Notes under the pieces: model-generated
Databases searched by the model: none
The model's input: only the letters and a program-made list of their open reading frames with translations
Told to the model about the DNA's origin: nothing
UHGV virus genome: UHGV-0093931
Reading direction: 5' to 3' (one strand)
DNA: 40,921 bases
DNA from: a virus
Shown: piece by piece, positions 4,027-28,363 of the stretch
How positions within the stretch are numbered: position 1 is the first letter of the stretch
How the letters are laid out: each line of letters starts with the position of its first letter
Made by a program: the position numbers and the translations under genes

Positions 4027-4190
4027 GGCGTTTTACCTTTACGTTCCTGTTCCAGTTGCACCAGAGACTCTTTTAATGCTGCGAACGCAGCGTCCAGTCT
4101 GGTGGCGACTTCGCGCATAAGCGGTGCATGCTTTGGTGGTAATTCAGCAATGGAGGCAAAAGCCTCCGCTACGAGCTCTTTTACCTTCAT
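4023..4190 (-). CDS. small hypothetical protein (55 aa), not in the ORF track
   Basis: Hand translation of the minus strand gives MKVKELVAEAFASIAELPPKHAPLMREVATRLDAAFAALKESLVQLEQERKGKTP; its ATG (4188-4190) overlaps the upstream stop (4187-4189) and its stop overlaps the next ATG, both as ATGA, like its neighbours. Confidence 0.5.
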   Translation of the reverse strand: MKVKELVAEAFASIAELPPKHAPLMREVATRLDAAFAALKESLVQLEQERKGKTP

Positions 4191-4726: not shown

Positions 4727-4910
4727 CGTTTTCTCCATATTGGCGCGCTGCACCGCGCAGATTTTGGTTGCACGAATCCCTCGCCGGGTGGCGATAATTA
4801 ATGGAATTACGCTTCAATAAATCCCCGCGGTGCCGGGGATTTAATGCAGAGCAATTAGGCTTTAAAGTTACCGATGAAAGTTTCCACTGATTCACCGTCG
4901 AACTTGCTGA

Positions 4911-9241: not shown

Positions 9242-10099
9242 ATGAGCACTAAATTAACCGGCTACGTATGGGATGGTTGCGCGGCGTCGGGCATGAAGTT
9301 GTCTAGTGTCGCGATCATGGCTCGCCTCGCTGATTTCAGCAGCGATGAGGGAGTGTGCTGGCCGTCCATTGAAACTATTGCTCGCCAGCTTGGCGCAGGG
9401 CCGAGCACGATCAGAACGGCAATCGCAAAGCTTGAAAAAGATGGCTGGCTCACGCGTACACAGCGCCGTAATGGTAACCGTAATGCGTCGAACGTGTACC
9501 GCCTGAATGTGGCGAAACTTCAGGCTGCCGCATTTTCTCAACTGTCAGATTCTGACACGTCAAAATCTGACGCATCAAATTTTGACGCCTCAAAAACTGA
9601 CCCGTCGAAATCTGGCAAAAACGGCGGTTTTGACCCGTCAGAATCTGGCGGGGATCCGTCAGTAAAATCAAAACAAGATCCACAAGTAACTTCAAAACCC
9701 TCTTGTCCGGTTGCGGCGCAACCAGACCCTGAAGTCGTGATTACTGATCAGGCAATTTTGGTTCTGACCCATTTGAACCAAATCAGCGGATCCCGGTATC
9801 AGAAATCAAAAACATCCCTGGAGAACATCCGTGCCCGACTGCGTGAGGGATACAGCGTTGCAGACCTGCAACTTGTTATCGACCTGAAGCATGAGCACTG
9901 GCACGAGAACGACGAGCAGTACCAGTACATGCGACCGGAAACGCTGTTTGGCCCGAAGAAATTCGAGAGCTATCTGCAAAGCGCTACCCGCTGGGAGCAG
10001 AAGGGACGGCCTAAACGTGCTGACTGGGGAGCGAAAAAGCGCGATGTGATGGCTTTTGGTCCGGTTGAAACAACGATTCCAGAGGGGTTCAGAGGATGA
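9242..10099 (+). CDS. phage replication initiator (O-like, N-terminal wHTH)
   Basis: 285 aa; N-terminal DNA-binding region; a low-complexity middle (SDSDTSKSDASNFDASKTDPSKSG) is encoded by the iteron repeats; first gene after the immunity/CII block. Confidence 0.75.
   Translation: MSTKLTGYVWDGCAASGMKLSSVAIMARLADFSSDEGVCWPSIETIARQLGAGPSTIRTAIAKLEKDGWLTRTQRRNGNRNASNVYRLNVAKLQAAAFSQLSDSDTSKSDASNFDASKTDPSKSGKNGGFDPSESGGDPSVKSKQDPQVTSKPSCPVAAQPDPEVVITDQAILVLTHLNQISGSRYQKSKTSLENIRARLREGYSVADLQLVIDLKHEHWHENDEQYQYMRPETLFGPKKFESYLQSATRWEQKGRPKRADWGAKKRDVMAFGPVETTIPEGFRG
9544..9651. repeat. iteron array (putative replication origin) inside the initiator gene
   Basis: Five tandem 15-bp units at 9544, 9559, 9574, 9589 and 9604 (gtcaGATTCTGACac, gtcaAAATCTGACgc, atcaAATTTTGACgc, ctcaAAAACTGACcc, gtcgAAATCTGGCaa) and a sixth copy at about 9637-9651; AT-richer DNA follows. 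Confidence 0.7.
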
Positions 10100-10977
10100 C
10101 GTTAAACAAATATTGCCAGGCGCTGGTGGCACTACGTAGCCAACCAGCCCACGAATTGAAAGAAGTTGGCGATCAGTGGCGGACACCGGACCTGCTTTTT
10201 TGGGGCATTAATGCGATGTTCGGCCCGCTGACGCTGGATCTCTTTGCTGATGACGATAACGCTAAGTGCCCTGTGTGGTACACCGCCGAAGATAACGCGC
10301 TGGTACAAGATTGGGCGGAAATGCTGGAATCAATCGGCGGGGCCGCATTCGGTAATCCACCATATAGCCGTTCGCAGTACCACGAGAAACAGGCGATAAC
10401 CGGCATGACCCACATCATGGATCGCACAATGGAAATGCGTGAAAAGAGTGGGCGTTACGTGTTCCTCATTAAAGCGGCGACAAGTGAAACATGGTGGCCG
10501 GAAGATGCCGATCACATCATGTTTATCCGCGGTCGTATTGGCTTCGATCTCCCTGTGTGGTTTGTTCCTGCTGATGATAAGCAGAAGCCCACTGGTGCTT
10601 TCTTTGCTGGTGCTATTGCAATCTTTGATAAGTCATGGCGCGGAGAGCGTTTCAGCTACATCAGCCGTACCGAACTGGAAGAAAAAGGGCGGGCGTTTAT
10701 GGCTTTGGCTCAATTCGCCGTTGGTAAAGAGCAAACAATTGCAATGCAGGCAGCTAAGGAACCAGCAGCAACACCGGAAACTGAGTCACGAATTTGGCCT
10801 CTCGAGGTTGGTCTGGTGTTTAACCAGGTGGAAGGCGTTGATGTATTGAGCGAGGCCCAGCAGAACAAACTGAAAGCCAACATCAATCAACTCTGGCTGG
10901 AACGAACGGCCACCAGCGAAATTATCACAATTGCGCGTGGTCTTGTTGGCAGCATGCAGGGGGTAACCCATGCGTGA
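10096..10977 (+). CDS. phage N6-adenine DNA methyltransferase (Dam-like)
   Basis: 293 aa; ...WRTPDLLF... and catalytic ...GNPPYS... motif typical of N6-A methyltransferases. Confidence 0.8.
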   Translation: MTLNKYCQALVALRSQPAHELKEVGDQWRTPDLLFWGINAMFGPLTLDLFADDDNAKCPVWYTAEDNALVQDWAEMLESIGGAAFGNPPYSRSQYHEKQAITGMTHIMDRTMEMREKSGRYVFLIKAATSETWWPEDADHIMFIRGRIGFDLPVWFVPADDKQKPTGAFFAGAIAIFDKSWRGERFSYISRTELEEKGRAFMALAQFAVGKEQTIAMQAAKEPAATPETESRIWPLEVGLVFNQVEGVDVLSEAQQNKLKANINQLWLERTATSEIITIARGLVGSMQGVTHA

Positions 10978-12904
10978 GATTATCGTTGATAACTTTGCTG
11001 GTGGCGGTGGTGCATCAACGGGTATTGAACTGGCGATCGGACGCAGCGTGGATATTGCGATCAACCACGACGAAAACGCCATTGCGATGCACAAGACGAA
11101 CCACCCTGACACACTGCATTACTGTGAATCCGTATTTGACGTGGATCCGGTAGCCGCCACCGGCGGCAATCCTGTTGGCCTGGCATGGTTTAGCCCGGAC
11201 TGCCGACACTTCTCAAAGGCCAAAGGCGCAAAGCCTGTGAAAAAAGAGATACGCGGTCTGGCCTGGATCGTTCTGCGTTGGGCACTGGCGAAGCGACCGC
11301 GCGTGATGATGCTGGAGAACGTGGAAGAGTTTAAAACGTGGGGACCGCTGCTGGCCGATGAAATGCGTCCAGACCCTGCCCGCACTGGCGAAACATTCAA
11401 TGCTTTTGTCGGCATGCTTTCCACTGGCATTCCTGCCGATCACCCGGCACTGGCGGAGGTCTGCGAATTTCTTGCTATTGATCCTGGCAGCACGCAGGCC
11501 AAACAGCTGGTGGAAGGGCTTGGATATGATGTTGATTATCGCGAACTGCGCGCGTGTGATTACGGCGCGCCGACGATCCGCAAACGCTTCTTCATGGTTA
11601 TGCGCTGCGATGGTTGCCCTATTCAGTGGCCTGTTGTAACCCATGGGGATCCCAAGTCACTGGAGGTGCAGAGCGGCAGGCTGATGCCATGGCGTACCGC
11701 TGCGGAATGTATCGACTGGAATGTTCCGGCTCTGTCCATCTTCGACCGCAAAAAACCGCTGGCAGAGAACACTCTGAAGCGGATCGCACGCGGCATACAG
11801 CGCTTTGTTATCGAAAGTGCGTCGCCGTTTATCGTGAAGTGCAACCACACGAGCTCAAAAAATGCGTATGACGCTTTTCGCGGACAGTCACTGAATGAGC
11901 CATTACAGACCATTACTAAAAAACTCGGCTACGCGTTAGCCGTTCCACACCTTACAAAATTCCGCACTGGCGCAACCGGGCAGCCCGTTACCGAACCTGT
12001 TCCGACGGTAACCGCTGGCACGTCAAAACGCCCGGGCGGGAACGGGCATGCTCTCGGGATTGTTGAGGCTGCATTGACACCATTCCTGGCGGGTAATGGT
12101 GGTAGTGAATACCAGGCTAAACCGCGCCCGCTGAATAAACCTGCTCATACCATTCTGAAGCAATCCCGAGCCTGTCTTGTTGCGCCAGTGATAGCCCGCC
12201 AGTTTGGGGCCAGCGTCGGCCACCGTGCAGACGAACCGAGCGCAACCATCACCGCTGGTGGTGGCGGTAAATCTCAACTGGTAACGCCTACGCTGATTCA
12301 GATGGGTTATGGCGAACGACCTGGACAAGAACCGCGTGTGCTGCGACTGGATAACCCGCTGGGGACCGTTACTGCAGGCGGAAATAAATTTGCGACGGTG
12401 AGCGCATTCCTGGCGAAACACTACGGCGGTAACTATACGGGGCCGGGTGTCAGTATGGATGAACCCGCGCATTCAGTGACCACTGTCGACCATCATGCGG
12501 TAGTTGCCTCTCATCTGGTGAAACTGCGTGGAACATGCCGCGACGGGCAACGCCTTGATGTGCCAATGCCAACAATCACTGCTGGTGGCCAACACGTGGG
12601 TGAGGTACGCACATTTCTCGAGACGTATTGCGGGGAAAGTGACGATGAATGGCTGGTAACGATCGATGGGGTTAAATACCAGATCGTTGATATCGGAATG
12701 CGCATGTTGCAGCCGCATGAACTCTACAAAGCGCAGGGCTTCCCGGATGGTTACGTTATTGATCAGGACTACCGTGGAAATCGCTATGCAAAAGATAAGC
12801 AGGTAGCCCGCTGCGGTAATGCGGTACCACCACCATTCGCCCGGGCGCTGGTTGAGGCAAATCTTCCGGAACTGTGTGCAGTGCAACAGCAGGAGGTGGC
12901 ATGA
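10970..12904 (+). CDS. DNA (cytosine-5)-methyltransferase with large variable region
   Basis: 644 aa; motif I FAGGGG, ENV motif (MLENVEEF) and C-terminal ...RCGNAVPP... (motif X); the catalytic Cys is in an atypical ...SPDCRHFS... context; long insert between conserved blocks. Confidence 0.8.
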   Translation: MREIIVDNFAGGGGASTGIELAIGRSVDIAINHDENAIAMHKTNHPDTLHYCESVFDVDPVAATGGNPVGLAWFSPDCRHFSKAKGAKPVKKEIRGLAWIVLRWALAKRPRVMMLENVEEFKTWGPLLADEMRPDPARTGETFNAFVGMLSTGIPADHPALAEVCEFLAIDPGSTQAKQLVEGLGYDVDYRELRACDYGAPTIRKRFFMVMRCDGCPIQWPVVTHGDPKSLEVQSGRLMPWRTAAECIDWNVPALSIFDRKKPLAENTLKRIARGIQRFVIESASPFIVKCNHTSSKNAYDAFRGQSLNEPLQTITKKLGYALAVPHLTKFRTGATGQPVTEPVPTVTAGTSKRPGGNGHALGIVEAALTPFLAGNGGSEYQAKPRPLNKPAHTILKQSRACLVAPVIARQFGASVGHRADEPSATITAGGGGKSQLVTPTLIQMGYGERPGQEPRVLRLDNPLGTVTAGGNKFATVSAFLAKHYGGNYTGPGVSMDEPAHSVTTVDHHAVVASHLVKLRGTCRDGQRLDVPMPTITAGGQHVGEVRTFLETYCGESDDEWLVTIDGVKYQIVDIGMRMLQPHELYKAQGFPDGYVIDQDYRGNRYAKDKQVARCGNAVPPPFARALVEANLPELCAVQQQEVA

Positions 12905-14979: not shown

Positions 14980-15000
14980 GTGTATGGAGCGCAAAGAAGC

Positions 15001-15690
15001 ATGAATCAACAAGACCTGAATTTTGTCAGAATAGAATTGCGCCGCGCGCTACCTGACCTCTCTGGGGGAACAAAAGGGCAGCTTGAGGCTTTCAGTGAAC
15101 ACCCACCAGCAGATAAAAATGCCACCCCGCGCCGTGGAATTCATCTCGTCGAACTCGAAGGAGATAAGGGGCCACGCTTTGTTAACTCGCTTTCCGCGCC
15201 ACTGTATGTGCTGGAAACACGCAGCCGCCGTAGGCCAATGCCGCCGATAAAAGATGCGGAATTTGAGTCAGCGCCGTGGCGTAGGGCAGTGTCCGCGCTT
15301 AGTGGATACCAGCAGGCCTGGTTGCGGTACTGTTACGGTTTTGACCTTAGCTATAAGCACCAGGTGATGATGTGTGAATACGTCTGGAAAACTTATCAGA
15401 AATGCCTGGGTGATAATTCCCTTCAGGAGCGCGTAGTAAAGAAACTGATTGGCCTGGTATGGCTGGCAGGGCAGGAAATTGCCGCAACCAGAAATAATGA
15501 AACCTATAAAGACTATGCTGGTGCAGCGTTGGCCCGCATGGTTAGCGTTGACCGTTCGACATGGTTGCGTGTCTATTCAGGGCACTGGGCTGGGTTAAAG
15601 GCCGCTTTTACCCAGCTTGATGAATCTGCGCTGGCCATGGCTCTTGAATACTATGAGGAAGAAGACGCCCTCAAAGTGGCAGAAATGTGA
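15001..15690 (+). CDS. putative late-gene antiterminator (Q-like)
   Basis: Last gene of the early-right operon, directly upstream of a promoter/terminator module and the lysis cassette; family call by position and memory. Confidence 0.5.
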   Translation: MNQQDLNFVRIELRRALPDLSGGTKGQLEAFSEHPPADKNATPRRGIHLVELEGDKGPRFVNSLSAPLYVLETRSRRRPMPPIKDAEFESAPWRRAVSALSGYQQAWLRYCYGFDLSYKHQVMMCEYVWKTYQKCLGDNSLQERVVKKLIGLVWLAGQEIAATRNNETYKDYAGAALARMVSVDRSTWLRVYSGHWAGLKAAFTQLDESALAMALEYYEEEDALKVAEM

Positions 15691-15782
15691 AGTAAATTTC
15701 ACTATCTCCTTCAAACGCGCTTGCAAAATGCAACAAAATAAGCCATATTTGAAGCATATTTGATATGTTGCCAAAGTTCTAT

Positions 15783-15810
15783 AAACCCGCCTGTGAGCGG
15801 GTTTTTCTTT
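15783..15810 (+). terminator. intrinsic terminator (tR'-like)
   Basis: AAACCCGC-ctgtga-GCGGGTTT stem-loop followed by TTTTCTTT. Confidence 0.7.
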
Positions 15811-15847
15811 AACCTCTTTTGGCACTCAATCTACGTCAAAATCAATA

Positions 15848-15856
15848 TGTTATAAT
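15848..15856 (+). promoter_or_regulatory. extended -10 promoter element (TGtTATAAT)
   Basis: TGn-TATAAT at 15848-15856, about 35 nt upstream of the 15892 ORF; could be the late promoter or a moron promoter. Confidence 0.45.
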
Positions 15857-15891
15857 TCCGCTGGTCAAAACAAGCCACCGGAGGCAGTGCT

Positions 15892-16131
15892 ATGAAAATC
15901 ACATCTGTACATTTCGAAATTCTGCGTCGAGCAGATGCACTTGGTCCACGTGAAACAATTCAATCTTCTGATCTTCCTCACATTCCAGCGAAAACGGTAG
16001 ATTTTGCCATTTCAGATCTTGCTGATTTGGGATTGGTAAATGCTGTTCAAAGTAAGTCTGATGAAGGTGGGTGGATAGCGATTGAAATCACGTCAAAGGG
16101 TGATCGCTATTTAAATGAACTAGAGGCTTAA
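15892..16131 (+). CDS. hypothetical small protein (moron between Q and lysis genes)
   Basis: 79-aa ORF with GGAGG RBS, AT-richer than neighbours, bracketed by its own promoter-like element and terminator. Confidence 0.55.
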   Translation: MKITSVHFEILRRADALGPRETIQSSDLPHIPAKTVDFAISDLADLGLVNAVQSKSDEGGWIAIEITSKGDRYLNELEA

Positions 16132-16166
16132 TTCACTCTCTAGTAAAACGCGGGACATAATCTATA

Positions 16167-16190
16167 GGCTGCCATTTGGCGGCCTTTTCT
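16167..16190 (+). terminator. intrinsic terminator
   Basis: GGCTGCC-attt-GGCGGCC stem (one G-U pair) followed by TTTTCTATTT. Confidence 0.55.
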
Positions 16191-16296
16191 ATTTCAGGCT
16201 CTGGGAATCACCCTTACTTTCACCTTTGCATAAGAGCCCAGAAGCCTGATCCTCCTTTCATCACACAGCGCCATCCGAACTATCGGAGGTGAGGCT

Positions 16297-16575
16297 ATGA
16301 CCAGAATGAGCACCATTTACAGCAGACTTTCATATGGAACAGGAACCACGCTGACCGGCTGCGGTGTATCAGCGAAGGCATACGCCGAAACAGCTAAAAC
16401 AGCAAAAGAGGTGTCCTGGATGTTGGCCGACAGAATTGCAGGGTTAAGCCTGAGCGACTGGGCAATTATTGTCGGTATCGCATGCACCGTTATTACCTGT
16501 GCAGTGAACTGGTATTTCCGCTGGAAAGAACGGGAGGATCGTCGCAATGGCTATGCCACAAAAGCTGAAGAATAA
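16297..16575 (+). CDS. holin, pinholin-like (phage 21 S-like) with dual-start motif
   Basis: 92 aa; begins MTRM (two Met codons separated by a basic residue); weakly hydrophobic first segment, clear TMD (WAIIVGIACTVITCAVNWYF) and charged tail (...REDRR...) resembling the S21 pinholin; sits immediately before a SAR endolysin. Confidence 0.7.
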   Translation: MTRMSTIYSRLSYGTGTTLTGCGVSAKAYAETAKTAKEVSWMLADRIAGLSLSDWAIIVGIACTVITCAVNWYFRWKEREDRRNGYATKAEE

Positions 16576-17095
16576 ACTGAGCGCAGCTGTCGTTGGGTTA
16601 ATTCTTGCCGGGGCTTCCGCACCCGTAATTCTCGATCAGTTTCTGGATGAGAAAGAGGGTAACAGCACAACAGCGTACAAGGACGGCTCTGGTATATGGA
16701 CCATTTGTCGTGGCGCAACGATGGTTGATGGTAAGCCAGTAGTTCAGGGCATGAAGCTGCCTGCTGAGAAATGCGCTCAGGTAAATGCTATTGAACGCGA
16801 TAAAGCGCTGGCGTGGGTTGACCGAAATATCAAAGTACCACTGACGGAACCACAGAAAGCGGGTATCGCTTCTTTCTGCCCATATAACATCGGCCCCGGA
16901 AAATGTTTCCCGTCTACGTTCTATAAGCGAATTAATGCTGGCGACCGTAAAGGAGCCTGTGAAGCGATCCGCTGGTGGATAAAAGACGGTGGCCGCGATT
17001 GTCGCCTGACCAAAGGGCAGAAGAATGGTTGTTATGGGCAGGTAGAAAGGCGAGACCAGGAAAGCGCGCTGGCTTGCTGGGGGATAGACCAGTGA
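16547..17095 (+). CDS. SAR endolysin (lysozyme, T4/P1-lysozyme-like)
   Basis: N-terminal signal-anchor-release-like segment (...LSAAVVGLILAGASAPVIL...) followed by a catalytic E...D...T region (EGNSTTAYKDGSGIWTICRG). Confidence 0.85.
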   Translation: MAMPQKLKNKLSAAVVGLILAGASAPVILDQFLDEKEGNSTTAYKDGSGIWTICRGATMVDGKPVVQGMKLPAEKCAQVNAIERDKALAWVDRNIKVPLTEPQKAGIASFCPYNIGPGKCFPSTFYKRINAGDRKGACEAIRWWIKDGGRDCRLTKGQKNGCYGQVERRDQESALACWGIDQ

Positions 17096-17616
17096 ACAGA
17101 AGCCTCGTTATTGTTGGGATGGCAGCAATCATCTTCATCGCGGTGCTCTGTGTACTACTGGCGCGCAGCAATGCAGCGTTGACCACGTCAGAGAGTGACA
17201 ACCGGATACTGCGCAACGATAACGCACTGCAGGCAACGGTGATAACTACCCAGGCGTTCAACTTCAACCGGTTTAACCAGGTAGCGGAGAACGCCAGTCG
17301 CCTGAACTCGCTGATTGATGCCGGAACCGAAAAGACCGTTATCGAATACCGGGAGATTCTTCGCCGTGAAAAAACCTGTGATCTGCCTGTTCCTGCTAAT
17401 GTCGCTGGTGGGCTGCTCAACTACGCGAACCGTTTACGTGCCAGCGCAATGCACCCCGATACCGGGGACACTGACGCAGCCGATGATAGTACCGCTGCCG
17501 CCAGCTCAATAACCTATTGTCAGGCCGTTCTCTGGATTCAATCATTACTTGCAGAGATAGAGAAGGGTAACAACCAACTGGCAGGGATTAGGGATATTGA
17601 GGAAGGGAGACATTAG
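17092..17616 (+). CDS. Rz-like i-spanin
   Basis: GTG at 17092 overlaps the endolysin stop; N-terminal TMD (SLVIVGMAAIIFIAVLCVLLA) then a long periplasmic region; contains an embedded +1-frame lipoprotein ORF. Confidence 0.7.
   Translation: MNRSLVIVGMAAIIFIAVLCVLLARSNAALTTSESDNRILRNDNALQATVITTQAFNFNRFNQVAENASRLNSLIDAGTEKTVIEYREILRREKTCDLPVPANVAGGLLNYANRLRASAMHPDTGDTDAADDSTAAASSITYCQAVLWIQSLLAEIEKGNNQLAGIRDIEEGRH
17366..17512 (+). CDS. Rz1-like o-spanin (lipoprotein embedded in Rz)
   Basis: GTG at 17366 with GGAG about 10 nt upstream; signal peptide plus lipobox (...LLMSLVGC...) and proline-rich mature part (PIPGTLTQPMIVPLPPAQ), entirely inside Rz in another frame. Confidence 0.6.
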   Translation: MKKPVICLFLLMSLVGCSTTRTVYVPAQCTPIPGTLTQPMIVPLPPAQ

Positions 17617-17652
17617 AAATAGGGCCACTTAAAGGTAGCCCAAACGATTCGA

Positions 17653-17910
17653 TTAAGATTTAGAAAGTAGGGCTACAACTCTTTTATGTAACTCTTCTGC
17701 ATAACCTTCATTTACTGGGTTTTCAAACTCCACAGGCGGCGCTGATTTAAAAGCTTTATCGTAGCTATCGCCAAGCATACCAGGCTGTTTGGCAAGGGAG
17801 TTCCAAGCTGTGGATATCGTGGTAATAGCAATTCTTGCTGCATGCTGATCTAAAAGTAGCTCTTCAATAGTTTTTTCGAGTTCATCAATGCGTTTCTGCA
17901 GATCTGTCAT
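17653..17910 (-). CDS. hypothetical small protein, divergent from the glycosyltransferase cluster
   Basis: 85-aa ORF on the opposite strand to all flanking late genes, in an AT-rich island (about 17620-18020). Confidence 0.45.
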   Translation of the reverse strand: MTDLQKRIDELEKTIEELLLDQHAARIAITTISTAWNSLAKQPGMLGDSYDKAFKSAPPVEFENPVNEGYAEELHKRVVALLSKS

Positions 17911-18018
17911 GAAATTACCTCTAAAGGGTTGTGTAAATGAGCTGCGATTATATCATTTTGGTGTCAGCAAAAGTGATGTCCAGATAGGAGTCCTGAACCA
18001 TTTTATTTTGGAGAAATT

Positions 18019-19476
18019 ATGCAGGTCACTATCGATGGTGTTCCATACGCGCCTGTCTGCAATTCGGTGTCACGCATAGGAATAGCAATCACAACGCATA
18101 ATCGCCCTGACGTATTGAAGCGGACACTGGCGCAGCATCATCAATTTTTACCGTCCGGCGCGCTCGTGGTTGTCATAGATGATGGTTCAAAACCTGCCGC
18201 AGTCGTTCCCGACGGCGTGCAGCTGCTTCGCAATGAAACATCCCTCGGCATTGTGGCCTCGAAAAACCGAAGCCTCGAAGCGCTGGTGGACGCCGGATGT
18301 GAGCATCTCTTCCTGTGGGATGATGACGCATGGCCGGTTGCCGATAACTGGCACCTGCCTTACATCGAATCACCTGAGTCACACCTGGCTTACCAGTTTC
18401 TCGATCTGGCTGGTCCACGAAAGATAAACGATATGACCGTCCTGCACCAGGATGATAAGCATATCGCTTACACCGGGCAGCGCGGTGTGATGCTGTACTA
18501 CCACCGCAGCGCCATTGAGAAGGTTGGCGGATTCGATCCGGTATACGGTCGAGGCATGTATGAGCATCCTGATTTGGCGCTTCGGATTTATAACGCTGGC
18601 TTAACGTCCTGGGCGTTTGCTGATGTGGTTGGCTCTGAAAAGCTGATTCACTCAATGGATGAATACGAAGAGGGCGCGCGCAGCATACCGAGGCCTGAAC
18701 GTGAAGCGCTCTATAAAAAGAACGCTGTAATTTACGGGCAGCGCCGGGATTCAGGATATACAGGCTATGCCGAATATCGATCTCAGCGCGACGTGGTAAT
18801 CACAACGTTGCTTACCAGCCAGCCAGACCCGCAGCGCGGTACGAAAATGGCGGCCGTATCAGACATGCTGACCAGGTGGGCTGCCTCGCTTCGGAATTGT
18901 GGCCGTATTGCGCTGGTGGATGAGCTGCAGACGGCATCGGCAGACGTTGAGTTGTATCGCGTCCCTGACGTGAAGATGAATGTCTACTTCCGGCGCTGGC
19001 TGCATATCTGGCAGCACCTGCGCGATCACCCTGAATACCGGTTCGTCTGGTGTACCGATGGTACCGATGTCGAAATGCTCCGCGCACCGTGGGAAGAAAT
19101 GCAGCCCGGGAATGTTTACGTCGGTTCTGAACCGAAGATCTACGCCGACACCTGGGCGAAACAGAATCATCCTGAGCGTATCTATCAGGAATTCATTGAA
19201 GCGCACCGCGGCGATGTGATGCTTAATGCTGGTCTTCTGGGAGGCACCCGCGCTGATGTGATGGCGTTCGCTCATGGCATCATCCGTCTTTACTACCGGA
19301 TCGAGAGTTATCGTTTCTGGAAGAAAGAACAGGCTGGCGCAGCGGTGGGTGACATGCTGGCGTTCGGTATCGTTGCGCAGTCATTCGCTGACAGGTTGGT
19401 CACCGGCCCTCTGGTACATACCGTTTTCAAAACTGATGGTATCGGTAAGGAGGCAGCATGGTGGAAACACAAGTGA
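18019..19476 (+). CDS. two-domain glycosyltransferase (GT2-like GT-A domain plus a second nucleotide-sugar-transferase-like domain)
   Basis: 485 aa; N-terminus ...IGIAITTHNRPDVLKRTL...VVVIDDGS...LFLWDDDAW... is a GT-A/GT2 signature with DxD; C-terminal half has ...VWCTDGTDVEM...NAGLLGG... resembling another GT-A-type domain; no predicted TM segments. Confidence 0.7.
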   Translation: MQVTIDGVPYAPVCNSVSRIGIAITTHNRPDVLKRTLAQHHQFLPSGALVVVIDDGSKPAAVVPDGVQLLRNETSLGIVASKNRSLEALVDAGCEHLFLWDDDAWPVADNWHLPYIESPESHLAYQFLDLAGPRKINDMTVLHQDDKHIAYTGQRGVMLYYHRSAIEKVGGFDPVYGRGMYEHPDLALRIYNAGLTSWAFADVVGSEKLIHSMDEYEEGARSIPRPEREALYKKNAVIYGQRRDSGYTGYAEYRSQRDVVITTLLTSQPDPQRGTKMAAVSDMLTRWAASLRNCGRIALVDELQTASADVELYRVPDVKMNVYFRRWLHIWQHLRDHPEYRFVWCTDGTDVEMLRAPWEEMQPGNVYVGSEPKIYADTWAKQNHPERIYQEFIEAHRGDVMLNAGLLGGTRADVMAFAHGIIRLYYRIESYRFWKKEQAGAAVGDMLAFGIVAQSFADRLVTGPLVHTVFKTDGIGKEAAWWKHK

Positions 19477-20048
19477 AGTTTGTTGTGGTTGGCCATCATT
19501 CCCGTTACGCCTCAGCTGCATTGCTGGCTGGTGAACTTGGCGCGCACCTTCTTATCGATGAAGGGAATCACGGGGCTAACTGGAATCACCGGCGCGCTAT
19601 CGAATGGGCTGCTGAGCAGCCTTGCCGGGTGGTGGTACTGGAAGACGACGCGCTGCCTGTACGTGGATTCAGAGACAAGCTTACGGGCTGGCTGGCTCGT
19701 TTCCCTGGCGACATGCTTAGTTTTTATCTGGGCACCGGGCGGCCACCGCAATACCAAATGCAGATAGCTGAACGCCTGATTAATGCGGATAAGGTGAGGT
19801 CTGACTTCATTATGCTGCAACGCCTGATACATGGCGTGTGCTACAGCATACCGCCTCAAAGCATCAGCCGTGTGCTGTCTCAATGGGACGGCAGTAAGCC
19901 TGCCGATTATGCCGTGGGCGATGCTTATGGTGGCGTTGTCGTCTATCCCTGTTGGTCGCTGGTGGACCACGCAGACGGCGAACCGGTTGAGCGTCACCCT
20001 GACTCAGCACCACGAACAGAACGCCGCCGGGCGTGGAGGTTAGCCTGA
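19458..20048 (+). CDS. glycosyltransferase family 25-like protein
   Basis: 196 aa; ...FVVVGHHSRYAS...LIDEGNHG...RVVVLEDDALP... matches the GT25 (LPS/LOS glycosyltransferase) motif order as recalled; strong AAGGAGG RBS; start overlaps the upstream gene. Confidence 0.55.
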   Translation: MVETQVKFVVVGHHSRYASAALLAGELGAHLLIDEGNHGANWNHRRAIEWAAEQPCRVVVLEDDALPVRGFRDKLTGWLARFPGDMLSFYLGTGRPPQYQMQIAERLINADKVRSDFIMLQRLIHGVCYSIPPQSISRVLSQWDGSKPADYAVGDAYGGVVVYPCWSLVDHADGEPVERHPDSAPRTERRRAWRLA

Positions 20049-20398
20049 TGCCTGCGTTAATACCGAGAGCATGCCGCAAGCGTGGCTGCTCTGGCACAAC
20101 CACTGAACGCTCAGGCTATTGTCCCAAGCACCTTAACGAAGGCTGGCAGCAGCATCAGCGAGGACAGAGCAGGCATCAGCGAGGTTATGGCAGCAAGTGG
20201 GACAGGCTGCGGCCAATCGTTCTCGACAGGGATAAACACCTTTGTCAGGAATGCCTGCGAAATGGAAGGTATACACCCGCTGAGACGGTGGACCACATCA
20301 CCGCCAAAGCAAATGGGGGGACCGATGACCTTTCCAACCTCGAAAGCCTCTGCAAGCCTTGCCACAGGGCGAAGACAGCAGTTGAAAGACTCAAATGA
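20048..20398 (+). CDS. HNH endonuclease (terminase-associated)
   Basis: Cys-rich ...CRKRGC...CPKH... and ...CQEC...DHI...CKPCH... HNH motif; directly upstream of the terminase small subunit. Confidence 0.85.
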   Translation: MPALIPRACRKRGCSGTTTERSGYCPKHLNEGWQQHQRGQSRHQRGYGSKWDRLRPIVLDRDKHLCQECLRNGRYTPAETVDHITAKANGGTDDLSNLESLCKPCHRAKTAVERLK

Positions 20399-20555: not shown

Positions 20556-21053
20556 ATGTCTGGACCACCGAAAACCCCGACCCATCTACGTTTGGTGAGG
20601 GGTAACCCATCAAAACGCCCGATTAATGAAAACGAACCAAAGCCAGCTGCAGGGGTACCCCCAACGCCGAAGCATTTCGACAAGCAGGGAAAATACTGGT
20701 TCAAGCGTATGGCTGAAGAGCTCGATGCGCTTGGCGTCATGTCGCAGCTGGACGCGAGAGCGCTTGAGATTTTGGTTGAGGTTTACACCGAGTACCGGCA
20801 TCACTGCGATACTCTGGAGAGAGAAGGCTATACCTACGCCGTATATAGCGACGAAGAACCAGACGAAGGCAAAGAGCGAGAGATTCGCATGATCAAGGCT
20901 CACCCGGCGGCCATCATGAAAGCTGATGCCTGGAAACGTCTTCGCGCCATGCTCGGAGAGTTCGGTATGACGCCAGCCAGCCGCTCTAAAGTGAATGCAA
21001 AAGGTCCTGATGCGGTTGACCCGCTGACCGAGTTTATGAAAGCGAGGGATTAA
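20556..21053 (+). CDS. terminase small subunit (P27-family type)
   Basis: 165-aa ORF with TAGGAG RBS, immediately upstream of and overlapping the large terminase. Confidence 0.8.
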   Translation: MSGPPKTPTHLRLVRGNPSKRPINENEPKPAAGVPPTPKHFDKQGKYWFKRMAEELDALGVMSQLDARALEILVEVYTEYRHHCDTLEREGYTYAVYSDEEPDEGKEREIRMIKAHPAAIMKADAWKRLRAMLGEFGMTPASRSKVNAKGPDAVDPLTEFMKARD

Positions 21054-22789
21054 TGGCTAAGGTTGCAGAAGGCATCCGCTACGCCGAGAGGGTGGTGGCG
21101 GGGGAAATTATTGCCTGTGAGTATGTGCGCCTTGCCTGTCAGCGTTTTCTTGACGATCTGGCCCACGGCGAAGAGCGCGGTATTTTCTTCAGTGAGCCGC
21201 GCGCGCAGCACATTCTGAATTTCTATAATTTTGTCCCTCACGTCAAAGGCGCGCTGGCAGGCCAGCCTATTGAGCTGATGGACTGGCATGTTTTCATCCT
21301 GATTAATATTTTTGGTTTTGTTATCCCGCTGGTTAACGAAGATACGGGGGAAAACGTCCTGCGTAACGACGGCAGCGGTCGACCGGTGATGGTTCGGCGT
21401 TTCCGTACAGCAGATGTTGAGGTGGCCCGTAAAAATGCCAAATCAACGCTTTGCTCCGGCGTAGGGCTGTATATGGCTGGTGCCGACGGCGAGGGAGGGG
21501 CGGAGGTTTATTCCGCTGCTACAACCCGTGACCAGGCGAGAATTGTTTTTGAAGACGCGAAAAATATGGTCAAGAAGGCGAAAGCCACTCTTGGGCGGAT
21601 CTTCGAATTCAACAAGCTCGCTATCTACCAGGAGCAAACGGCCTCCAAATTCGAGCCATTATCATCAGATGCAAACAACCTCGACGGCCTGAACATCCAC
21701 TGCGCCATCGTTGACGAGCTGCATGCTCATAAAACGCGTGACGTCTGGGACGTTCTGGAGACGGCCACCGGCGCGCGCCTGCAATCTCTGCTTTTCGGTA
21801 TCACCACCGCTGGTTTCAACAAAGAAGGTATCTGTTACGAATTGCGTGATTACGCCATCAAGGTCCTGCGCGGCCTGGTTAAAGACGATACGTTTTTTGC
21901 CATCATCTACACCTTAGATGAAGGTGACGATCCATTTGATGAAAAAGTCTGGCAGAAGGCCAATCCGGGGCTGGGTATCTGTAAGCGCTGGGATGACTTG
22001 CGGCGTCTGGCAAAAAAAGCGAAAGAGCAGGTTTCGGCCAGGATTAACTTTTTCACCAAGCACATGAATATCTGGGTTACGGCAGAGTCTGCCTGGATGG
22101 ACATGATGAAATGGGAGAAATGCGAGTTTATCGCCCCGCAGCACGAACTTAAAACCTATCCCTCCTGGGTGGGCGTTGACCTTTCAAACAAAATTGATAT
22201 CTGTGCGGCCGCTAAAGTCTGGCGCGCGCCAGGTGGCCACGTTCACGCGGATTTTAAATTCTGGCTTCCGGAAGGACGCCTTGAGAAATGTTCACGCCAG
22301 ATGGCAGAGCTCTATCGTAAGTGGGCTGAGCTGGACAAGCTGATCCTTACCGACGGGGATGTAATCGACCATGCTCAGATTAAGGAAGAGCTGCAGGTGT
22401 GGGTTGCTGGCGAGAATCTGAAAGAAATTGGCTTCGATCCCTGGAGTGCTACGCAGTTCAGCCTTGCGCTGGCAGAAGAAGGGTTGCCACTGGTGGAGGT
22501 GCCGCAGACGGTTCGCAATTTCTCTGAGGCGATGAAAGAGGTCGAAGCACTGGTATATGGTGGCCGCTTCCATCACAGCGATCACCCGGTAATGAACTGG
22601 ATGATGTCCAACGTAACCGTCAAACCTGACAGGAACGAGAATATTTTCCCGAACAAGTCCACACCAGAGGCCAAGATTGATGGCCCGGCGGCATTGTTCA
22701 CAGCAATGAGCCGCGTTCTGGTTAACGGTGGCAACGACCAGCAGGATCTTTCCGGATTCTTCAATAATCCCATCATGGTAGGTTTCTGA
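21053..22789 (+). CDS. terminase large subunit
   Basis: 578 aa; Walker A-like ...LCSGVGLYMAGADGEG... context and C-terminal nuclease-type acidic motifs; followed by the portal gene. Confidence 0.9.
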   Translation: MAKVAEGIRYAERVVAGEIIACEYVRLACQRFLDDLAHGEERGIFFSEPRAQHILNFYNFVPHVKGALAGQPIELMDWHVFILINIFGFVIPLVNEDTGENVLRNDGSGRPVMVRRFRTADVEVARKNAKSTLCSGVGLYMAGADGEGGAEVYSAATTRDQARIVFEDAKNMVKKAKATLGRIFEFNKLAIYQEQTASKFEPLSSDANNLDGLNIHCAIVDELHAHKTRDVWDVLETATGARLQSLLFGITTAGFNKEGICYELRDYAIKVLRGLVKDDTFFAIIYTLDEGDDPFDEKVWQKANPGLGICKRWDDLRRLAKKAKEQVSARINFFTKHMNIWVTAESAWMDMMKWEKCEFIAPQHELKTYPSWVGVDLSNKIDICAAAKVWRAPGGHVHADFKFWLPEGRLEKCSRQMAELYRKWAELDKLILTDGDVIDHAQIKEELQVWVAGENLKEIGFDPWSATQFSLALAEEGLPLVEVPQTVRNFSEAMKEVEALVYGGRFHHSDHPVMNWMMSNVTVKPDRNENIFPNKSTPEAKIDGPAALFTAMSRVLVNGGNDQQDLSGFFNNPIMVGF

Positions 22790-24964: not shown

Positions 24965-26176
24965 ATGTCTGAAGTAAACGATATTCTGAAAAAAGTCACC
25001 GCCAGCATTGAAGAGGCAACCGGCAAGTTCAACGCGAAAGCAGAAGAAGCAGTGAAGGAGGCGCAGAAGTCCGGCAAGCTTTCAGAAGAAACAAAGGCGG
25101 CCGTCGATAAAATGGCTTCTGAGTTCAACGCCCTGCGTGAGGCAGAAAAAACGTTGAAGGCAGCTATGGGAGAACTGGAGCAACATGTTGCCCAGATGCC
25201 GCTGGCAAACGCGAAGCATGTTGTGGAATCAATCGGCCAGCAGGTGATCTCTGCTGAAGCGCTGAAAACCTTTGCCTCCGGCGTGGAAGGTGGAAAACGT
25301 ATCAGTATCCCGGTTAAGGCGGCACTGACTTCTGCGGATGTGCTTGATGGTGTTGTCGAACCCCAGCGAATTCCTGGCATCGATACGGCACCAAAACAAC
25401 GCCTGTTCATTCGCGATCTGATTGCTCCTGGCCGCACTTCCTCCCCGGCTATTTTCTGGGTGCAGCAGACGGGTTTTACCAATAACGCGAAAGTGGTTCC
25501 TGAGAATACGCAGAAACCCTACAGCGACATTGAGTTTACGCCGAAAATCACTGGCGTCAGCACCATCGCTCACCTGTTCAAAGCCTCCAAGCAGATCCTG
25601 GATGATTTCGCACAGCTGCAGTCAACCGTTGATGCCGAAATGCGCTACGGACTGAAGTACGCGGAAGAGCAGGAAATTCTCTTCGGTGACGGCACCGGTG
25701 TGCATCTGCATGGCATCGTTCCTCAGGCGTCAGCGTTTAACCCGGCGTTTACTGTTGAACAGCAGAGCGGTATTGACGATCTGCGTCTGGCAATGCTGCA
25801 GGCACAGTTGGCGCGCTTCCCGGCATCCGGCCACGTTCTTCACTTCATTGACTGGGCACGGATCGAGCTGACGAAAGATAGCCTGGGCCGCTACATCCTG
25901 GCTAACCCTGCAGCGCTGACTGGTCCGACGCTGTGGGGCTTGCCGGTTGTTGCCACGGAAGCGGCAGCCTTCCAGGGTAAATTCCTGACTGGTGCTTTCA
26001 ACGCTGGCGCGCAAATCTTCGACCGCGAAGATGCGAACGTTGTTATCTCCACGGAGAACGCCGACGACTTCGAGAAAAACATGATCACCATCCGTTGCGA
26101 GGAACGTCTGGCGCTGGCCGTCAAACGCCCTGAAGCATTTGTATACGGTGCATTCCGCACTGGCGCTGGTAGCTGA
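24965..26176 (+). CDS. major capsid protein (HK97-fold)
   Basis: 403-aa ORF after the protease; coiled N-terminal delta-domain-like region, then a capsid-like body. Confidence 0.85.
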   Translation: MSEVNDILKKVTASIEEATGKFNAKAEEAVKEAQKSGKLSEETKAAVDKMASEFNALREAEKTLKAAMGELEQHVAQMPLANAKHVVESIGQQVISAEALKTFASGVEGGKRISIPVKAALTSADVLDGVVEPQRIPGIDTAPKQRLFIRDLIAPGRTSSPAIFWVQQTGFTNNAKVVPENTQKPYSDIEFTPKITGVSTIAHLFKASKQILDDFAQLQSTVDAEMRYGLKYAEEQEILFGDGTGVHLHGIVPQASAFNPAFTVEQQSGIDDLRLAMLQAQLARFPASGHVLHFIDWARIELTKDSLGRYILANPAALTGPTLWGLPVVATEAAAFQGKFLTGAFNAGAQIFDREDANVVISTENADDFEKNMITIRCEERLALAVKRPEAFVYGAFRTGAGS

Positions 26177-26215: not shown

Positions 26216-26440
26216 ATGAAACTGATTGCACTTAAACCGATTTATTTCGGCGGTACCGTCGTTACTGAGGGGCTTCCGCTGGAAACTCTGGAACAGCACG
26301 GTCGCGAGCTCATCAAAAAAGGCTATGCGATGCTCGATGAATCAGAAAATCCTGCAGAGCAGGAACAGCAGCAGGAACAGCAGCAGGAACAGCAGCAGGA
26401 ACAGCCCGAAGTAAAAGCGGAAAAAAAGGCGAAAAAATAA
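26216..26440 (+). CDS. small head-region protein with EQQQ repeats
   Basis: 74 aa; C-terminal (EQQQ)n encoded by a tandem 12-nt repeat; located between capsid and connector genes. Confidence 0.5.
   Translation: MKLIALKPIYFGGTVVTEGLPLETLEQHGRELIKKGYAMLDESENPAEQEQQQEQQQEQQQEQPEVKAEKKAKK
26360..26404 (+). repeat. tandem 12-nt repeat (CAGGAACAGCAG), about 3.7 copies
   Basis: Direct reading of codons GAG CAG GAA CAG CAG CAG GAA CAG CAG CAG GAA CAG CAG CAG GAA CAG. Confidence 0.9.
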
Positions 26441-27910: not shown

Positions 27911-28363
27911 ATGGCTGATAAAACTTCGCCAGAGTACGCGATGCTGCCTGCTGGCACCGTCGTTATGTGGGGGGCTGCGGGCAGCAACGTAGCAACAATG
28001 AAACCACTCATTAACTGTAGAGCGCTGGGCGCTACAGGACAGACGGGCAGTTTTGTGGACTGCACTACGCTGATCGATACCAGTAAACAGTTTATCTCTG
28101 ACCTGCCTGAAGGACCTGAAAAATCTCTGGGCTTTATTGACGATCCAGCCAACCAGGACTTTGCTGATTTCCTCAACGCAGCAGAGAACCGGGAAACCGT
28201 ACAGTTTTACGTTGAGTTGCCAAATGGTCGAACGGCGAACATGATTCTGGCCCTGTCTGGCTGGCAGATGAATGAAATTACTGCCCCGGCAAGTGAAGTC
28301 ATTCAAATCACTGTTCAGGGAAAACAGAACAACATCACCTGGGGTACCGCAGCTGGCAGCTGA
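27911..28363 (+). CDS. major tail (tube) protein
   Basis: 150 aa; followed by an intrinsic terminator and then the G/GT chaperone pair and tape measure. Confidence 0.8.
   Translation: MADKTSPEYAMLPAGTVVMWGAAGSNVATMKPLINCRALGATGQTGSFVDCTTLIDTSKQFISDLPEGPEKSLGFIDDPANQDFADFLNAAENRETVQFYVELPNGRTANMILALSGWQMNEITAPASEVIQITVQGKQNNITWGTAAGS

Follow-up and report, generated by a model that had tools for sequence, protein, structure and literature searches.

Two adjacent genes whose products resemble glycosyltransferases raise an immediate question when they are found in a phage genome: what do these enzymes glycosylate? The window analyzed here, the whole 40,921-nucleotide stretch of UHGV virus genome UHGV-0093931, is a ~41-kb HK97-like enterobacterial prophage in which such a pair, designated GT485 and GT196, lies between Rz and the HNH/terminase genes (Table 1). 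A preliminary description had placed the two genes between the lysis cassette and HNH/terminase, which is confirmed by holin, endolysin and Rz upstream and HNH, TerS and TerL downstream, and had recognized the motifs VVVIDDGS, WDDDAW and RVVVLEDD in their products, all of which are present. It had also listed virion proteins among several candidate acceptors, and our evidence points to these proteins. GT196 is homologous to gp110 of phage Che8, and the head and tail-tube proteins encoded in the window end in Gly-Ser; therefore, the most likely substrate is the phage particle itself, and not the host surface or the phage DNA. The reading that we favor, with a probability of roughly 0.6, is that the pair would constitute a virion O-glycosylation system of the Che8 type in which another enzyme extends the glycan.

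Table 1. Positions of the glycosyltransferase genes, their neighbors and the candidate acceptors in the window
Feature	Position	Strand	Description
Two DNA methyltransferases	10096-10977, 10970-12904		PHROG scan
ORF at late antiterminator Q position	14980..15690	+	assigned by position and analogy
Holin	16297-16575		part of lysis cassette
Endolysin	16547-17095		part of lysis cassette
Rz	16975-17616		part of lysis cassette, upstream of GT485/GT196
Divergent 85-aa ORF	17653-17910	-	
GT485	18019..19476	+	485 aa; ORF
GT196	19458..20048	+	196 aa; ORF
HNH endonuclease (packaging accessory)	20033..20398	+	Pfam HNH E 1.5e-15
TerS	20556-21053		
TerL	21053-22789		
Major capsid protein	24965..26176	+	403 aa, ends ...AFRTGAGS; PHROG 10 major head protein, E 1e-87
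Capsid C-terminal Gly-Ser tag, candidate acceptor	~26162-26173		coding positions
Tail tube protein	27911..28363	+	150 aa, ends ...ITWGTAAGS; Pfam Phage_TTP_13 E 5.6e-72; PHROG 158 major tail protein

Assignment of both genes to glycosyltransferase families was supported by profile searches, in which GT485 gave a full-length match to PHROG 1579, annotated as glycosyltransferase (E 2e-246), and GT196 fell into PHROG 854 (E 9e-72). The three glycosyltransferase-like domains previously claimed for the pair stood only in part. For the first domain of GT485, the protein's own match to Pfam GT2 (PF00535) was sub-threshold (E 5.8e-4, 20.3 bits, cutoff 23.3), but the assignment was well supported at the family level: Glycos_transf_2 was matched by 37 of 48 diverse relatives (best E 2.5e-10) and Glyco_transf_7C by 33 of the 48. 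D101 and D103 of the WDDDAW motif were invariant throughout the family, and the two-domain architecture was kept in 249 cluster representatives (E<1e-30). The second domain (residues ~255-485) had no Pfam match, and its PDB profile search was empty even at E 10; it does contain conserved acidic and Asn-Gly motifs, D347xxD350 and N403xG405, which hint at a sugar-nucleotide site, and a glycosyltransferase function for this domain is plausible. Thus, GT485 is predicted to be a two-domain soluble glycosyltransferase, with an N-terminal GT2/GT-A domain that includes a Glyco_transf_7C-like region. No methyltransferase domain was detected in either protein.

PDB sequence searches with the single GT485 and GT196 proteins returned nothing, and the GT485 family profile gave N-terminal GT2 matches only, the best of which were polysaccharide synthases (E about 1e-5) and a PglI-type enzyme. 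The synthases, E. coli K4 chondroitin polymerase (2z86) and Pasteurella heparosan synthase (8vh7), resemble GT485 in having two transferase domains in one polypeptide; however, they match only ~70-90 residues of its N-terminal nucleotide-binding region and leave domain 2 unmatched, and polymerase activity of GT485 would be pure speculation. AlphaFold models built from alignments of close homologs (77-92% identical) were poor (mean pLDDT 41.9 and 53.2) and therefore lent the proposal no structural support, and a Foldseek search with the GT196 model yielded generic Rossmann-like noise only (best E 0.03).

GT196 links the locus to enzymes of known function. In BLASTP comparisons it shared 35% identity with Che8 gp110 over 192 aa (E 2e-29) and 31% with Corndog gp38 (E 2e-19), both of which belong to the same PHROG. 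Its earlier description as GT25-like holds by transitivity through these two homologs: gp110 (32.3 bits) and gp38 (24.5 bits) pass the 24-bit cutoff of Pfam GT25 (PF01755) over ~50 residues around an xEDD motif, whereas GT196 itself had no match to this model. According to two reports (PMC11600133, PMC11652166), gp110 and gp38 O-glycosylate capsid and tail-tube proteins. They are reported to be essential for this modification of the subunits. With tblastn, the gp110 family was found in 719 phage records, including 662 mycobacteriophages. GT196 was the sole component common to all the glycosylation systems compared, its partner glycosyltransferases being different, and in HK633 its homolog occurred alone; both observations fit an initiator role.

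Comparison of gene organization strengthened this link. Several features of Che8/Corndog-type systems were found in the window, namely, a gp110/gp38-family enzyme, an adjacent second glycosyltransferase, Ser-ended subunits and a late or structural placement. In Che8, glycosyltransferases gp108, gp109 and gp110 are followed by gp111, gp112 (HNH) and the genome end; similarly, the order in the window is GT485, GT196, HNH and TerS, at the end of the late arm and before the terminase. Both systems comprise soluble enzymes, and both have capsid and tail-tube subunits that end in Gly-Ser. They differ in the partners of the common enzyme: Che8 has gp108, in which GT2 is joined to an O-methyltransferase domain, and gp109 (PHROG 1721), whereas GT196 is accompanied by a single 485-aa protein that combines a GT2/7C domain with a second domain and has no methyltransferase. 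In addition, the host in our case is a Gram-negative enterobacterium. Corndog gp35-gp38 comprise a methyltransferase and three glycosyltransferases; a gp38 homolog and a Gly-Ser capsid ending are shared with the window, but the Corndog genes lie within the head cluster, flanked by the portal/protease genes on one side and the capsid gene on the other, gp36 and gp37 are without counterpart in the window, and the probable tail-tube protein gp49 ends in ...KGDS rather than GS. GT485 had no significant similarity to the partner enzymes gp108/gp109 or gp36/gp37; when its domains were compared by hhalign with Che8 gp108-110 and Corndog gp36-38, the N-terminal domain weakly resembled gp109 and gp37 in the 7C-like region (E 1e-3 and 4e-4, respectively), and the C-terminal domain matched none of these proteins. 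The associated O-methyltransferase (the C-terminal domain of Che8 gp108, and Corndog gp35) is absent from the window pair and is probably accessory rather than a defining feature of the Che8/Corndog system.

The position of the two genes suggests when they would be expressed. The end of GT485 overlaps the start of GT196 by 19 nt, and the end of GT196 overlaps the start of the HNH gene by 16 nt. Overlapping frames within a presumed Q-dependent late operon suggest co-expression with structural genes, and the HNH overlap suggests that the glycosyltransferase genes are tied to the late packaging and structural operon. The ORF at the Q position is presumed, from its position and by analogy, to encode the Q protein that would drive late transcription through the lysis and glycosyltransferase region; in HK542 and HK633, an annotated antitermination protein Q, PR' and qut are located upstream of the same gene order.

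The C-termini of the structural proteins provided candidate acceptors. Only 2 of the 56 ORFs in the window end in AGS, the major capsid and tail-tube proteins. Relatives of this capsid family from loci lacking the glycosyltransferase genes end in ...TVPAPAGA, ...APAAGGGA or ...PASGGQ. The Che8 capsid protein ends in ...KTGS and its tail protein in ...SDGS, and these are the sole GS-ending proteins among 12 encoded in the left arm; the Corndog capsid protein ends in ...LVGS. In mycobacteriophages L5 and Bxb1, which lack the enzymes, the corresponding endings are ...TEA, ...PEG and ...SVG. The primary study of Che8 reportedly placed the glycan at the extreme C-terminus of virion subunits.

Co-occurrence of the pair and these endings was assessed in 80 IMG/VR loci retrieved with the capsid protein. 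Capsid proteins ended in Ser in 35 of the 36 loci with both glycosyltransferase genes vs 3 of 16 without them (Fisher p 1.1e-8), and tail-tube proteins ended in GS or TS in 33 of 34 pair-carrying loci vs 2 of 14 (p 1.6e-8; 2 of 7 and p 1.6e-4 when the test was restricted to three identified tube families), p values that ignore shared descent and are inflated by linkage, the distance between the glycosyltransferase genes and the capsid gene being only ~5 kb. Three separate tail-tube families carried the GS ending. Of 1493 distinct gene-like ORFs, 80 ended in GS, and 78 of these encoded capsid or tail-tube proteins; the background among other ORFs was ~0.14%. An HMM search of all ORFs detected no divergent glycosyltransferases hidden in the apparently negative loci, which therefore represent true losses or absences. 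Exceptions occurred in both directions. The HK97 and HK022 capsid proteins end in ...FSSGS in the absence of the glycosyltransferase genes, and a Ser-ending capsid tag was kept in three negative loci; conversely, locus L076 carries the pair and has a capsid ending of ...GGGA, and the tail-tube protein of L018 ends in ...PKAAA. Thus, the GS tag is neither sufficient nor strictly necessary.

The pair proved to be no rarity. It occupied the same Rz-HNH position in HK542, ECP1 and ENT39118, and its homologs were present in hundreds of Enterobacter, Citrobacter and Cronobacter genomes. The preliminary description would have been countered by these genes being common annotated components at this position in many related phages with known function. 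Half of this applied: in several related phages they are common and annotated there, but no tested function for the pair in enterobacterial phages was found in the literature. Cultured carriers were HK542, ECP1, mEp390, ENT39118 and AsXd-1, all of which have an HK97-type capsid protein ending in ...FSSGS and tail-tube proteins of 147-156 aa ending in ...ASGS, ...AAGS or ...ESGS. In Cronobacter phage ENT47670, which is not HK97-like, the pair is located within the tail genes, directly after the major tail gene; its capsid protein ends in ...ATS and its tail protein in ...PSS. In Gordonia phage Phendrix, a gp110 homolog lies among the clustered structural genes, and GS terminates four structural proteins in a row. 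The pair was also detected in phiKp24, a strictly lytic-looking jumbo myophage of Klebsiella, whose capsid protein was not in the two genome regions examined.

From these observations we infer a scheme for the acceptor, the division of labor between the enzymes, the timing of expression, the sugars and the benefit. Expression of the pair would probably be late and shared with the packaging and structural genes. Using a nucleotide-sugar donor, GT196 would attach the first sugar to the serine hydroxyl at the C-terminus of both the major capsid protein (...TGAGS) and the tail-tube protein (...TAAGS), with the short flexible x-Gly-Ser-COOH tail serving as the recognition tag. GT485 would then extend the glycan, each of its domains adding one type of sugar. 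The outcome would be head and tail surfaces bearing hundreds of glycans, which, by analogy with Che8, could shield the particle from antibodies or alter its sticking to surfaces.

Other targets were considered. Lysogenic conversion or superinfection exclusion, in which sugars are added to the host's LPS core, O-antigen or another of its envelope glycans and thereby change its serotype or block the receptor for other phages, would explain why the pair occupies the slot between Rz and the packaging genes, a classic moron position, next to an AT-rich stretch. The GT25 family matched by gp110 and gp38 is named after LPS biosynthesis enzymes, and its members are typically LPS-core transferases; the polysaccharide synthases and PglI-type enzyme among the PDB matches of GT485 point the same way, as does the PHROGs category of both families (moron, auxiliary metabolic gene and host takeover). 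Nevertheless, we regard modification of the host envelope as quite unlikely. The known gtr systems (P22, SfV type) are also phage-encoded, include a GT2-family enzyme and occur in temperate phages of the same hosts, but they need membrane proteins GtrA and GtrC and membrane-anchored GtrB, lie beside the integrase and are expressed in the lysogen, whereas the window pair is in a presumed late operon and has neither transmembrane segments nor membrane partners. Kyte-Doolittle analysis with 19-residue windows found no transmembrane-like segment in GT485 or GT196 (maxima 1.37 and 1.00 vs 1.99 for the holin), and no ORF of at least 100 aa with multiple transmembrane segments occurs anywhere in the window, which therefore encodes no GtrA/GtrC-like partner; no flippase was found either. 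These results agree with the earlier view that the pair is not a gtrABC cassette, as does ENT47670, which carries a separate complete gtrABC adjoining its integrase and yet has the pair within the tail gene cluster. Moreover, frame overlaps connect the pair with the late HNH gene and speak against an autonomous promoter-terminator unit, the same pair occurs in a lytic-looking jumbo phage, and envelope modification leaves GS-ended capsid and tail-tube proteins in several unrelated structural modules without a reason.

Glycosylation of a modified base in phage DNA, which would evade restriction as in T-even or TET-associated systems, appears very improbable, even though glycosyltransferases are a frequent anti-restriction tool of phages and the pair adjoins HNH and terminase packaging genes. 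Like GT485 and GT196, T4 alpha/beta-glucosyltransferases and TAGT enzymes are soluble users of nucleotide-sugars, and weak matches to Pfam TAGT (PF20691) were obtained for 13 of the 48 GT485 relatives (16-25 bits vs cutoff 27.5). However, all these matches were sub-threshold and covered only the generic Rossmann part at the N-terminus, which GT2 matches as well, and GT485 itself had none; identity as a TET-associated DNA glycosyltransferase was therefore rejected. No hydroxymethylase, TET/JBP or DpdA-like gene, and hence no hydroxymethylated-base pathway, emerged from a PHROG scan of ten early-region proteins, in which the identified products were an exonuclease, a dNMP phosphatase, replication proteins, two DNA methyltransferases, Ant and HNH. 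PADLOC defence models gave no meaningful match. The closest characterized homolog acts on proteins, and DNA glycosylation does not account for the co-varying C-terminal tags on virion proteins. This covariation also bears on the idea that, during lytic growth, the enzymes act on something else (a small molecule, another phage protein or, for takeover or anti-defence, a protein of the host) and that GS endings are a lineage trait unrelated to them. HK97 and HK022, whose capsid tag could be incidental, and association statistics that lack correction for phylogeny are compatible with this idea, which we consider unlikely: against a low background frequency of GS in other ORFs, GS ends and gp110-family genes recur together in unrelated structural modules of phages from hosts as distant as Enterobacteriaceae, Aeromonas, Gordonia and Mycobacterium, and the structural gene cluster itself harbors the genes in ENT47670, Phendrix and Corndog.

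Glycosylation of the virion, as favored here, invites a broader interpretation, which we offer tentatively and to which we would give somewhat less than even odds. The C-terminal x-Gly-Ser-COOH would serve as a portable glyco-tag, recognized by gp110-family enzymes whether the phage infects Actinobacteria or Gram-negative bacteria; particles would be glycosylated in HK97-like coliphages (HK542, ECP1, mEp390), in many Enterobacter, Citrobacter and Cronobacter prophages and probably in phiKp24; the tail-tube glycan would functionally replace the Ig-like decoration domain of relatives without the enzymes, such as HK97; and GT485 would be a new two-domain glycan-extending, possibly polymerizing, transferase. 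To our knowledge, actinobacteriophages are so far the only phages for which glycosylation of the virion has been shown, and it is unreported for phages of Gram-negative bacteria; the primary study of Che8 is said to have seen scant evidence of it among phages in general. If the proposal is true, classical and easily grown coliphages of the HK97 group, together with a large share of Enterobacter, Citrobacter, Cronobacter and Klebsiella prophages, have glycosylated virions; a genetically tractable E. coli K-12 system becomes available for studying how phages tag their own coats; a gp110-family gene plus Ser-terminated capsid and tail-tube proteins becomes a sequence rule for glycosylated virions; and the moron/host takeover label of PHROG 1579 and PHROG 854 would be corrected. 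It also suggests a route for moving antibody-shielding glycans onto therapeutic phages of Gram-negative pathogens; in HK97, the capsid tag is already present and the enzymes are absent.

The region upstream of the pair deserves a separate comment. An AT-rich island and a divergent 85-aa ORF had been noted there, and both exist (GC is 0.41-0.46 across ~17450-18200 vs 0.52-0.60 in the flanks). The suggestion that they mark an acquired module with its own regulation was not supported, given the overlaps with late genes described above, the lack of any excess of promoter-like matches in the region (4 vs 5.0 expected from shuffled sequence) and the distribution of the ORF. It was present in 1 of 80 related loci, that one being identical to the window, was absent from HK542, ECP1 and ENT39118 and was unrelated to the small antisense ORF of HK633. 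Therefore, it was ruled out as a part of the module and is an unrelated neighboring moron.

We estimate at about 0.6 the probability that two adjacent genes of this complete, HK97-like lambdoid prophage, encoding proteins of 485 aa (GT485) and 196 aa (GT196), form a virion glycosylation system of the type found in mycobacteriophage Che8, with a different extending enzyme. [quoted passage not shown]

Both ORFs, with their quoted motifs, are exactly as the preliminary description gave them. Pfam alone offers thin evidence on these proteins: GT485 matched GT2 with an E of 5.8e-4 and 20.3 bits, below the cutoff of 23.3, and GT196 had no Pfam match. At the family level, sequence evidence that both are glycosyltransferases is strong. 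Each matched over its full length a PHROG annotated as glycosyltransferase (phrog_1579 for GT485, E 2e-246; phrog_854 for GT196, E 9e-72). An exhaustive representative search identified 1528 relatives of GT485; nearly all of the 249 at E<1e-30 were 450-490 aa long and spanned both halves, and among 48 diverse relatives Glycos_transf_2 was matched by 37 and Glyco_transf_7C by 33. Three glycosyltransferase-like domains had been proposed for the pair. Family-level support extends to both proteins, but the second nucleotide-sugar-transferase-like domain of GT485 stays a guess, because the C-terminal half (residues ~255-485) matched no Pfam model or PDB sequence. Conserved residues in this half were D270-Q272-R273, D347xxD350, N403xG405 and the terminal H484-K485.

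Features of the prophage, with positions in the window
Feature	Position (nt)	Strand	Remarks
Integrase	50-1363	-	
Predicted deoxyribonucleoside 5'-monophosphate phosphatase (early region)	4187-4753	-	
Early region			exonuclease, replication genes, two DNA methyltransferases
DNA methyltransferase	10096-10977	+	293 aa; early region
DNA methyltransferase	10970-12904	+	644 aa; early region, adjacent to the preceding gene
Q-position ORF	14980-15690		upstream of lysis genes
79-aa ORF	15892-16131	+	between Q-position ORF and holin
Terminator-like hairpin	16166-16185		follows 79-aa ORF
Holin	16297-16575		lysis gene
Endolysin	16547-17095		lysis gene
Rz	16975-17616		last lysis gene before glycosyltransferase region
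Terminator-like hairpin	17622-17641	-	downstream of 85-aa ORF, on that ORF's own strand
85-aa ORF	17653-17910	-	in AT-rich stretch, antisense to late operon
GT485	18019-19476	+	485 aa
GT196	19458-20048	+	196 aa
HNH	20033-20398		directly after GT196
TerS, TerL, portal, protease			in this order 3' of HNH, then major capsid protein
Major capsid protein	24965-26176		connector genes follow
74-aa protein	26216-26440	+	between capsid and adaptor genes
Tail-tube protein	27911-28363		then tape measure, tail fibres

GT485 and GT196 overlap by 19 nt, and GT196 and HNH by 16 nt. The AT-rich stretch at ~17450-18200 has a GC content of 0.41-0.46, against 0.52-0.60 in the flanks. The 85-aa ORF does not belong to the glycosyltransferase module: among the 80 related loci, it was found only in the single one whose sequence equals that of the window, and it is therefore probably a separate small moron. 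It matched PHROG 16546 (unknown function) and has a coiled-coil-like appearance.

The pair itself is not a rare insert. Rz and HNH likewise flank it in the Escherichia phages HK542 (gp54/55) and ECP1 (gp22/23) and in Cronobacter phage ENT39118, and both genes were also present, irrespective of position, in mEp390, Fostie, LMessi, Fraca, SaltyDalty, CharmingMan, FSL SP-016 and AsXd-1. Near-full-length homologs number in the hundreds across genomes of Enterobacter, Citrobacter, Cronobacter, Klebsiella and Salmonella, with a top identity of 97% (Citrobacter freundii); among complete E. coli genomes, carriers are only a small minority. The genes as such are already known and annotated, with RefSeq labels of "glycosyltransferase" or "glucosyltransferase". 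In the literature searched, virion glycosylation was not reported for any enterobacterial phage, nor was a function of the pair; the papers there that cite Freeman et al. 2023, the primary Che8 study, deal with other subjects.

The link to Che8 comes from GT196. A tblastn search with this protein against phage genomes yielded 719 records, including 662 mycobacteriophages (clusters F, O and C) and 21 Gordonia phages. GT196 was 35% identical over 192 aa to the glycosyltransferase gp110 of Che8 (E 2e-29) and 31% identical to gp38 of Corndog (E 2e-19); all three share phrog_854, and gp110 and gp38 passed the Pfam GT25 threshold. According to passages in papers citing Freeman et al. [quoted passage not shown] At its right end, Che8 has gp108, gp109 and gp110 (all glycosyltransferases), gp111, gp112 (HNH) and genome end, in the same order as in the window. 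GT485, in contrast, had no pairwise homology to Che8 gp108 or gp109 or to Corndog gp36 or gp37. Profile comparison gave weak similarity only, to gp109 and gp37, and GT485 had a secondary PHROG match to the family of Che8 gp108.

C-terminal sequences point to the virion as acceptor. In the window, the capsid protein ends in ...AFRTGAGS and the tail-tube protein in ...ITWGTAAGS, the only two AGS endings among 56 ORFs scored. Likewise, the Che8 capsid (...KTGS) and major tail protein (...SDGS) are the sole GS enders among 12 left-arm proteins, and the Corndog capsid protein ends in ...LVGS; endings in L5 and Bxb1, which do not have these genes, are ...TEA, ...PEG and ...SVG. We scored 80 IMG/VR loci, fetched via the capsid protein with 10-kb flanks, for both genes and for C-termini. 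Where both genes were present (36 loci), the capsid ended in Ser in 35 (mostly ...TGAGS) and the tail tube in GS or TS in 33 of the 34 identified. Where neither was present (16 loci, absence checked by HMM), the corresponding figures were 3/16 and 2/14, and the remaining capsids ended in ...PAPAGA, ...AGGGA or ...SGGQ. Fisher p values of 1.1e-8 (capsid), 1.6e-8 (tail tube) and 1.6e-4 (tail tube, three recognised tube families only) take no account of shared ancestry or physical linkage, and the co-occurrence is thus supportive of a virion acceptor rather than conclusive. Tail tubes with a GS ending belonged to three distinct families (NIESGS, IYASGS and KIDPGS; GTAAGS; KEQPGS, KAQAGS and KVESGS), whose members in loci without the pair end in CTVTVA, CTVTIN or PKVVTP. 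Among 1493 distinct gene-like ORFs in the 80 loci, 80 ended in GS, and 78 of these were capsid or tail-tube proteins.

Exceptions occurred in both directions. The capsids of HK97 (L091 4028-5185) and HK022 (L092 4028-5185) end in ...GTFSSGS though these phages have no glycosyltransferase genes; if the pair were transplanted into them, these capsids would already offer an acceptor. Three loci without the pair (L010, L024, L065) kept a Ser-ending capsid tag, two of them together with a GS-ending tail tube. Three more hold internally deleted remnants of both genes, as if the module had been lost recently: in L039 (4134-4412) and L058 (4972-5187), the initial 31-46 residues of GT485 abut the last 60-70 of GT196, and in L021 (3455-5105) the GT485/GT196 junction is deleted. 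All three retain the capsid GS tag; the tail tube ends in GS in L039 and L058 and in ...PKAAA in L021. Conversely, one carrier capsid ends in ...GGGA (L076) and one carrier tail tube in ...PKAAA (L018). The tag alone therefore predicts nothing, and the distribution fits accessory enzymes that are acquired and lost as a module while the short tag, costing little to retain, stays in place.

Tags and gp110-type enzymes also occur together in other lineages. In HK542, ECP1, mEp390, ENT39118 and AsXd-1, the HK97-type capsid protein ends in ...FSSGS and the short tail tube (147-156 aa) in ...ASGS, ...AAGS or ...ESGS. Cronobacter phage ENT47670 has a head/tail module of another type, with the pair directly after the major tail gene; its capsid-like protein ends in ...EATS and its tail protein in ...EPSS. 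The structural cluster of Gordonia phage Phendrix (L095 6268-10084) contains a gp110 homolog, 40% identical to GT196, together with a GT2 partner that differs from GT485; next to them are four structural proteins in succession, gp74 (capsid), gp75, gp76 and gp77, that all end in GS. HK633 has a GT196-type gene (67% identical; L099 4797-5363) without a GT485 partner, its capsid ends in ...SSGS and its HK97-type tail-tube protein in ...TLTIS; this may be a minimal, single-sugar form of the system. The same pair (55% and 46.5% identity) was detected in the 307-kb Klebsiella jumbo myophage phiKp24 (L096 6525-8594), far from the annotated structural genes and surrounded by small genes without an assigned function. 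As published, the capsid protein of phiKp24 has a C-terminal loop of unusual length at the centre of the capsomer.

All these systems share a gp110-family enzyme and no other component, and HK633 has this enzyme alone. It would add the first sugar to the terminal Ser of capsid and tail-tube subunits, and GT485 would extend the glycan, possibly by one sugar per domain. Overlapping reading frames and a position downstream of the Q-position ORF make it probable that expression of the pair is late, alongside that of the structural genes. In the HK97 tail-tube protein, the tube domain is followed by a C-terminal Ig domain; that of carriers has just the tube domain and a GS tail. Within one tail-tube family (IMG/VR family A), proteins from loci without the pair are 234-238 aa long with a C-terminal Ig-like domain, and those of carriers are 147-156 aa (HK97, L091 6733-7437, versus HK542, L087 6678-7148). 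With a GS tail where HK97 has an Ig domain, the tag lies on the outside of the phage tail, and a glycan may take over from the Ig-like decoration. Antibody shielding is known as a benefit only for Che8 and could apply here by analogy. To our knowledge, virion glycosylation of the Che8 type, here with another extender, has not been proposed before for Gram-negative phages.

Modification of LPS or another envelope component by the pair is weakened as an alternative. No TM-like segment was detected in GT485 or GT196 and no polytopic membrane ORF in the window, consistent with the earlier view that this is not a classic gtrABC cassette; moreover, ENT47670 carries a complete gtrABC next to the integrase besides the pair (L097 4622-7334 and 39577-42143), which argues directly against an O-antigen function. 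The GS tags would also be left unexplained. In ENT47670, two distinct glycosylation systems thus share a genome. Glycosylation of phage DNA is likewise weakened: a PHROG scan of ten early-region proteins found no hydroxymethyl-base pathway, two DNA methyltransferases are present instead, and matches to TAGT were sub-threshold and generic. This phage probably relies on methylation to counter restriction. Another protein or a small molecule is a possible acceptor.

Two further small genes were noted. The 79-aa ORF, inside an AT-rich stretch (~15650-16250), matched PHROG 32916, to which PHROG assigns no function, and had weak winged-helix-like Pfam matches; it is a further moron-like insert in the late leader. 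The 74-aa protein matched PHROG 5463 (unknown function) and has a C-terminal (EQQQ)n-like acidic/glutamine repeat with a lysine-rich end.
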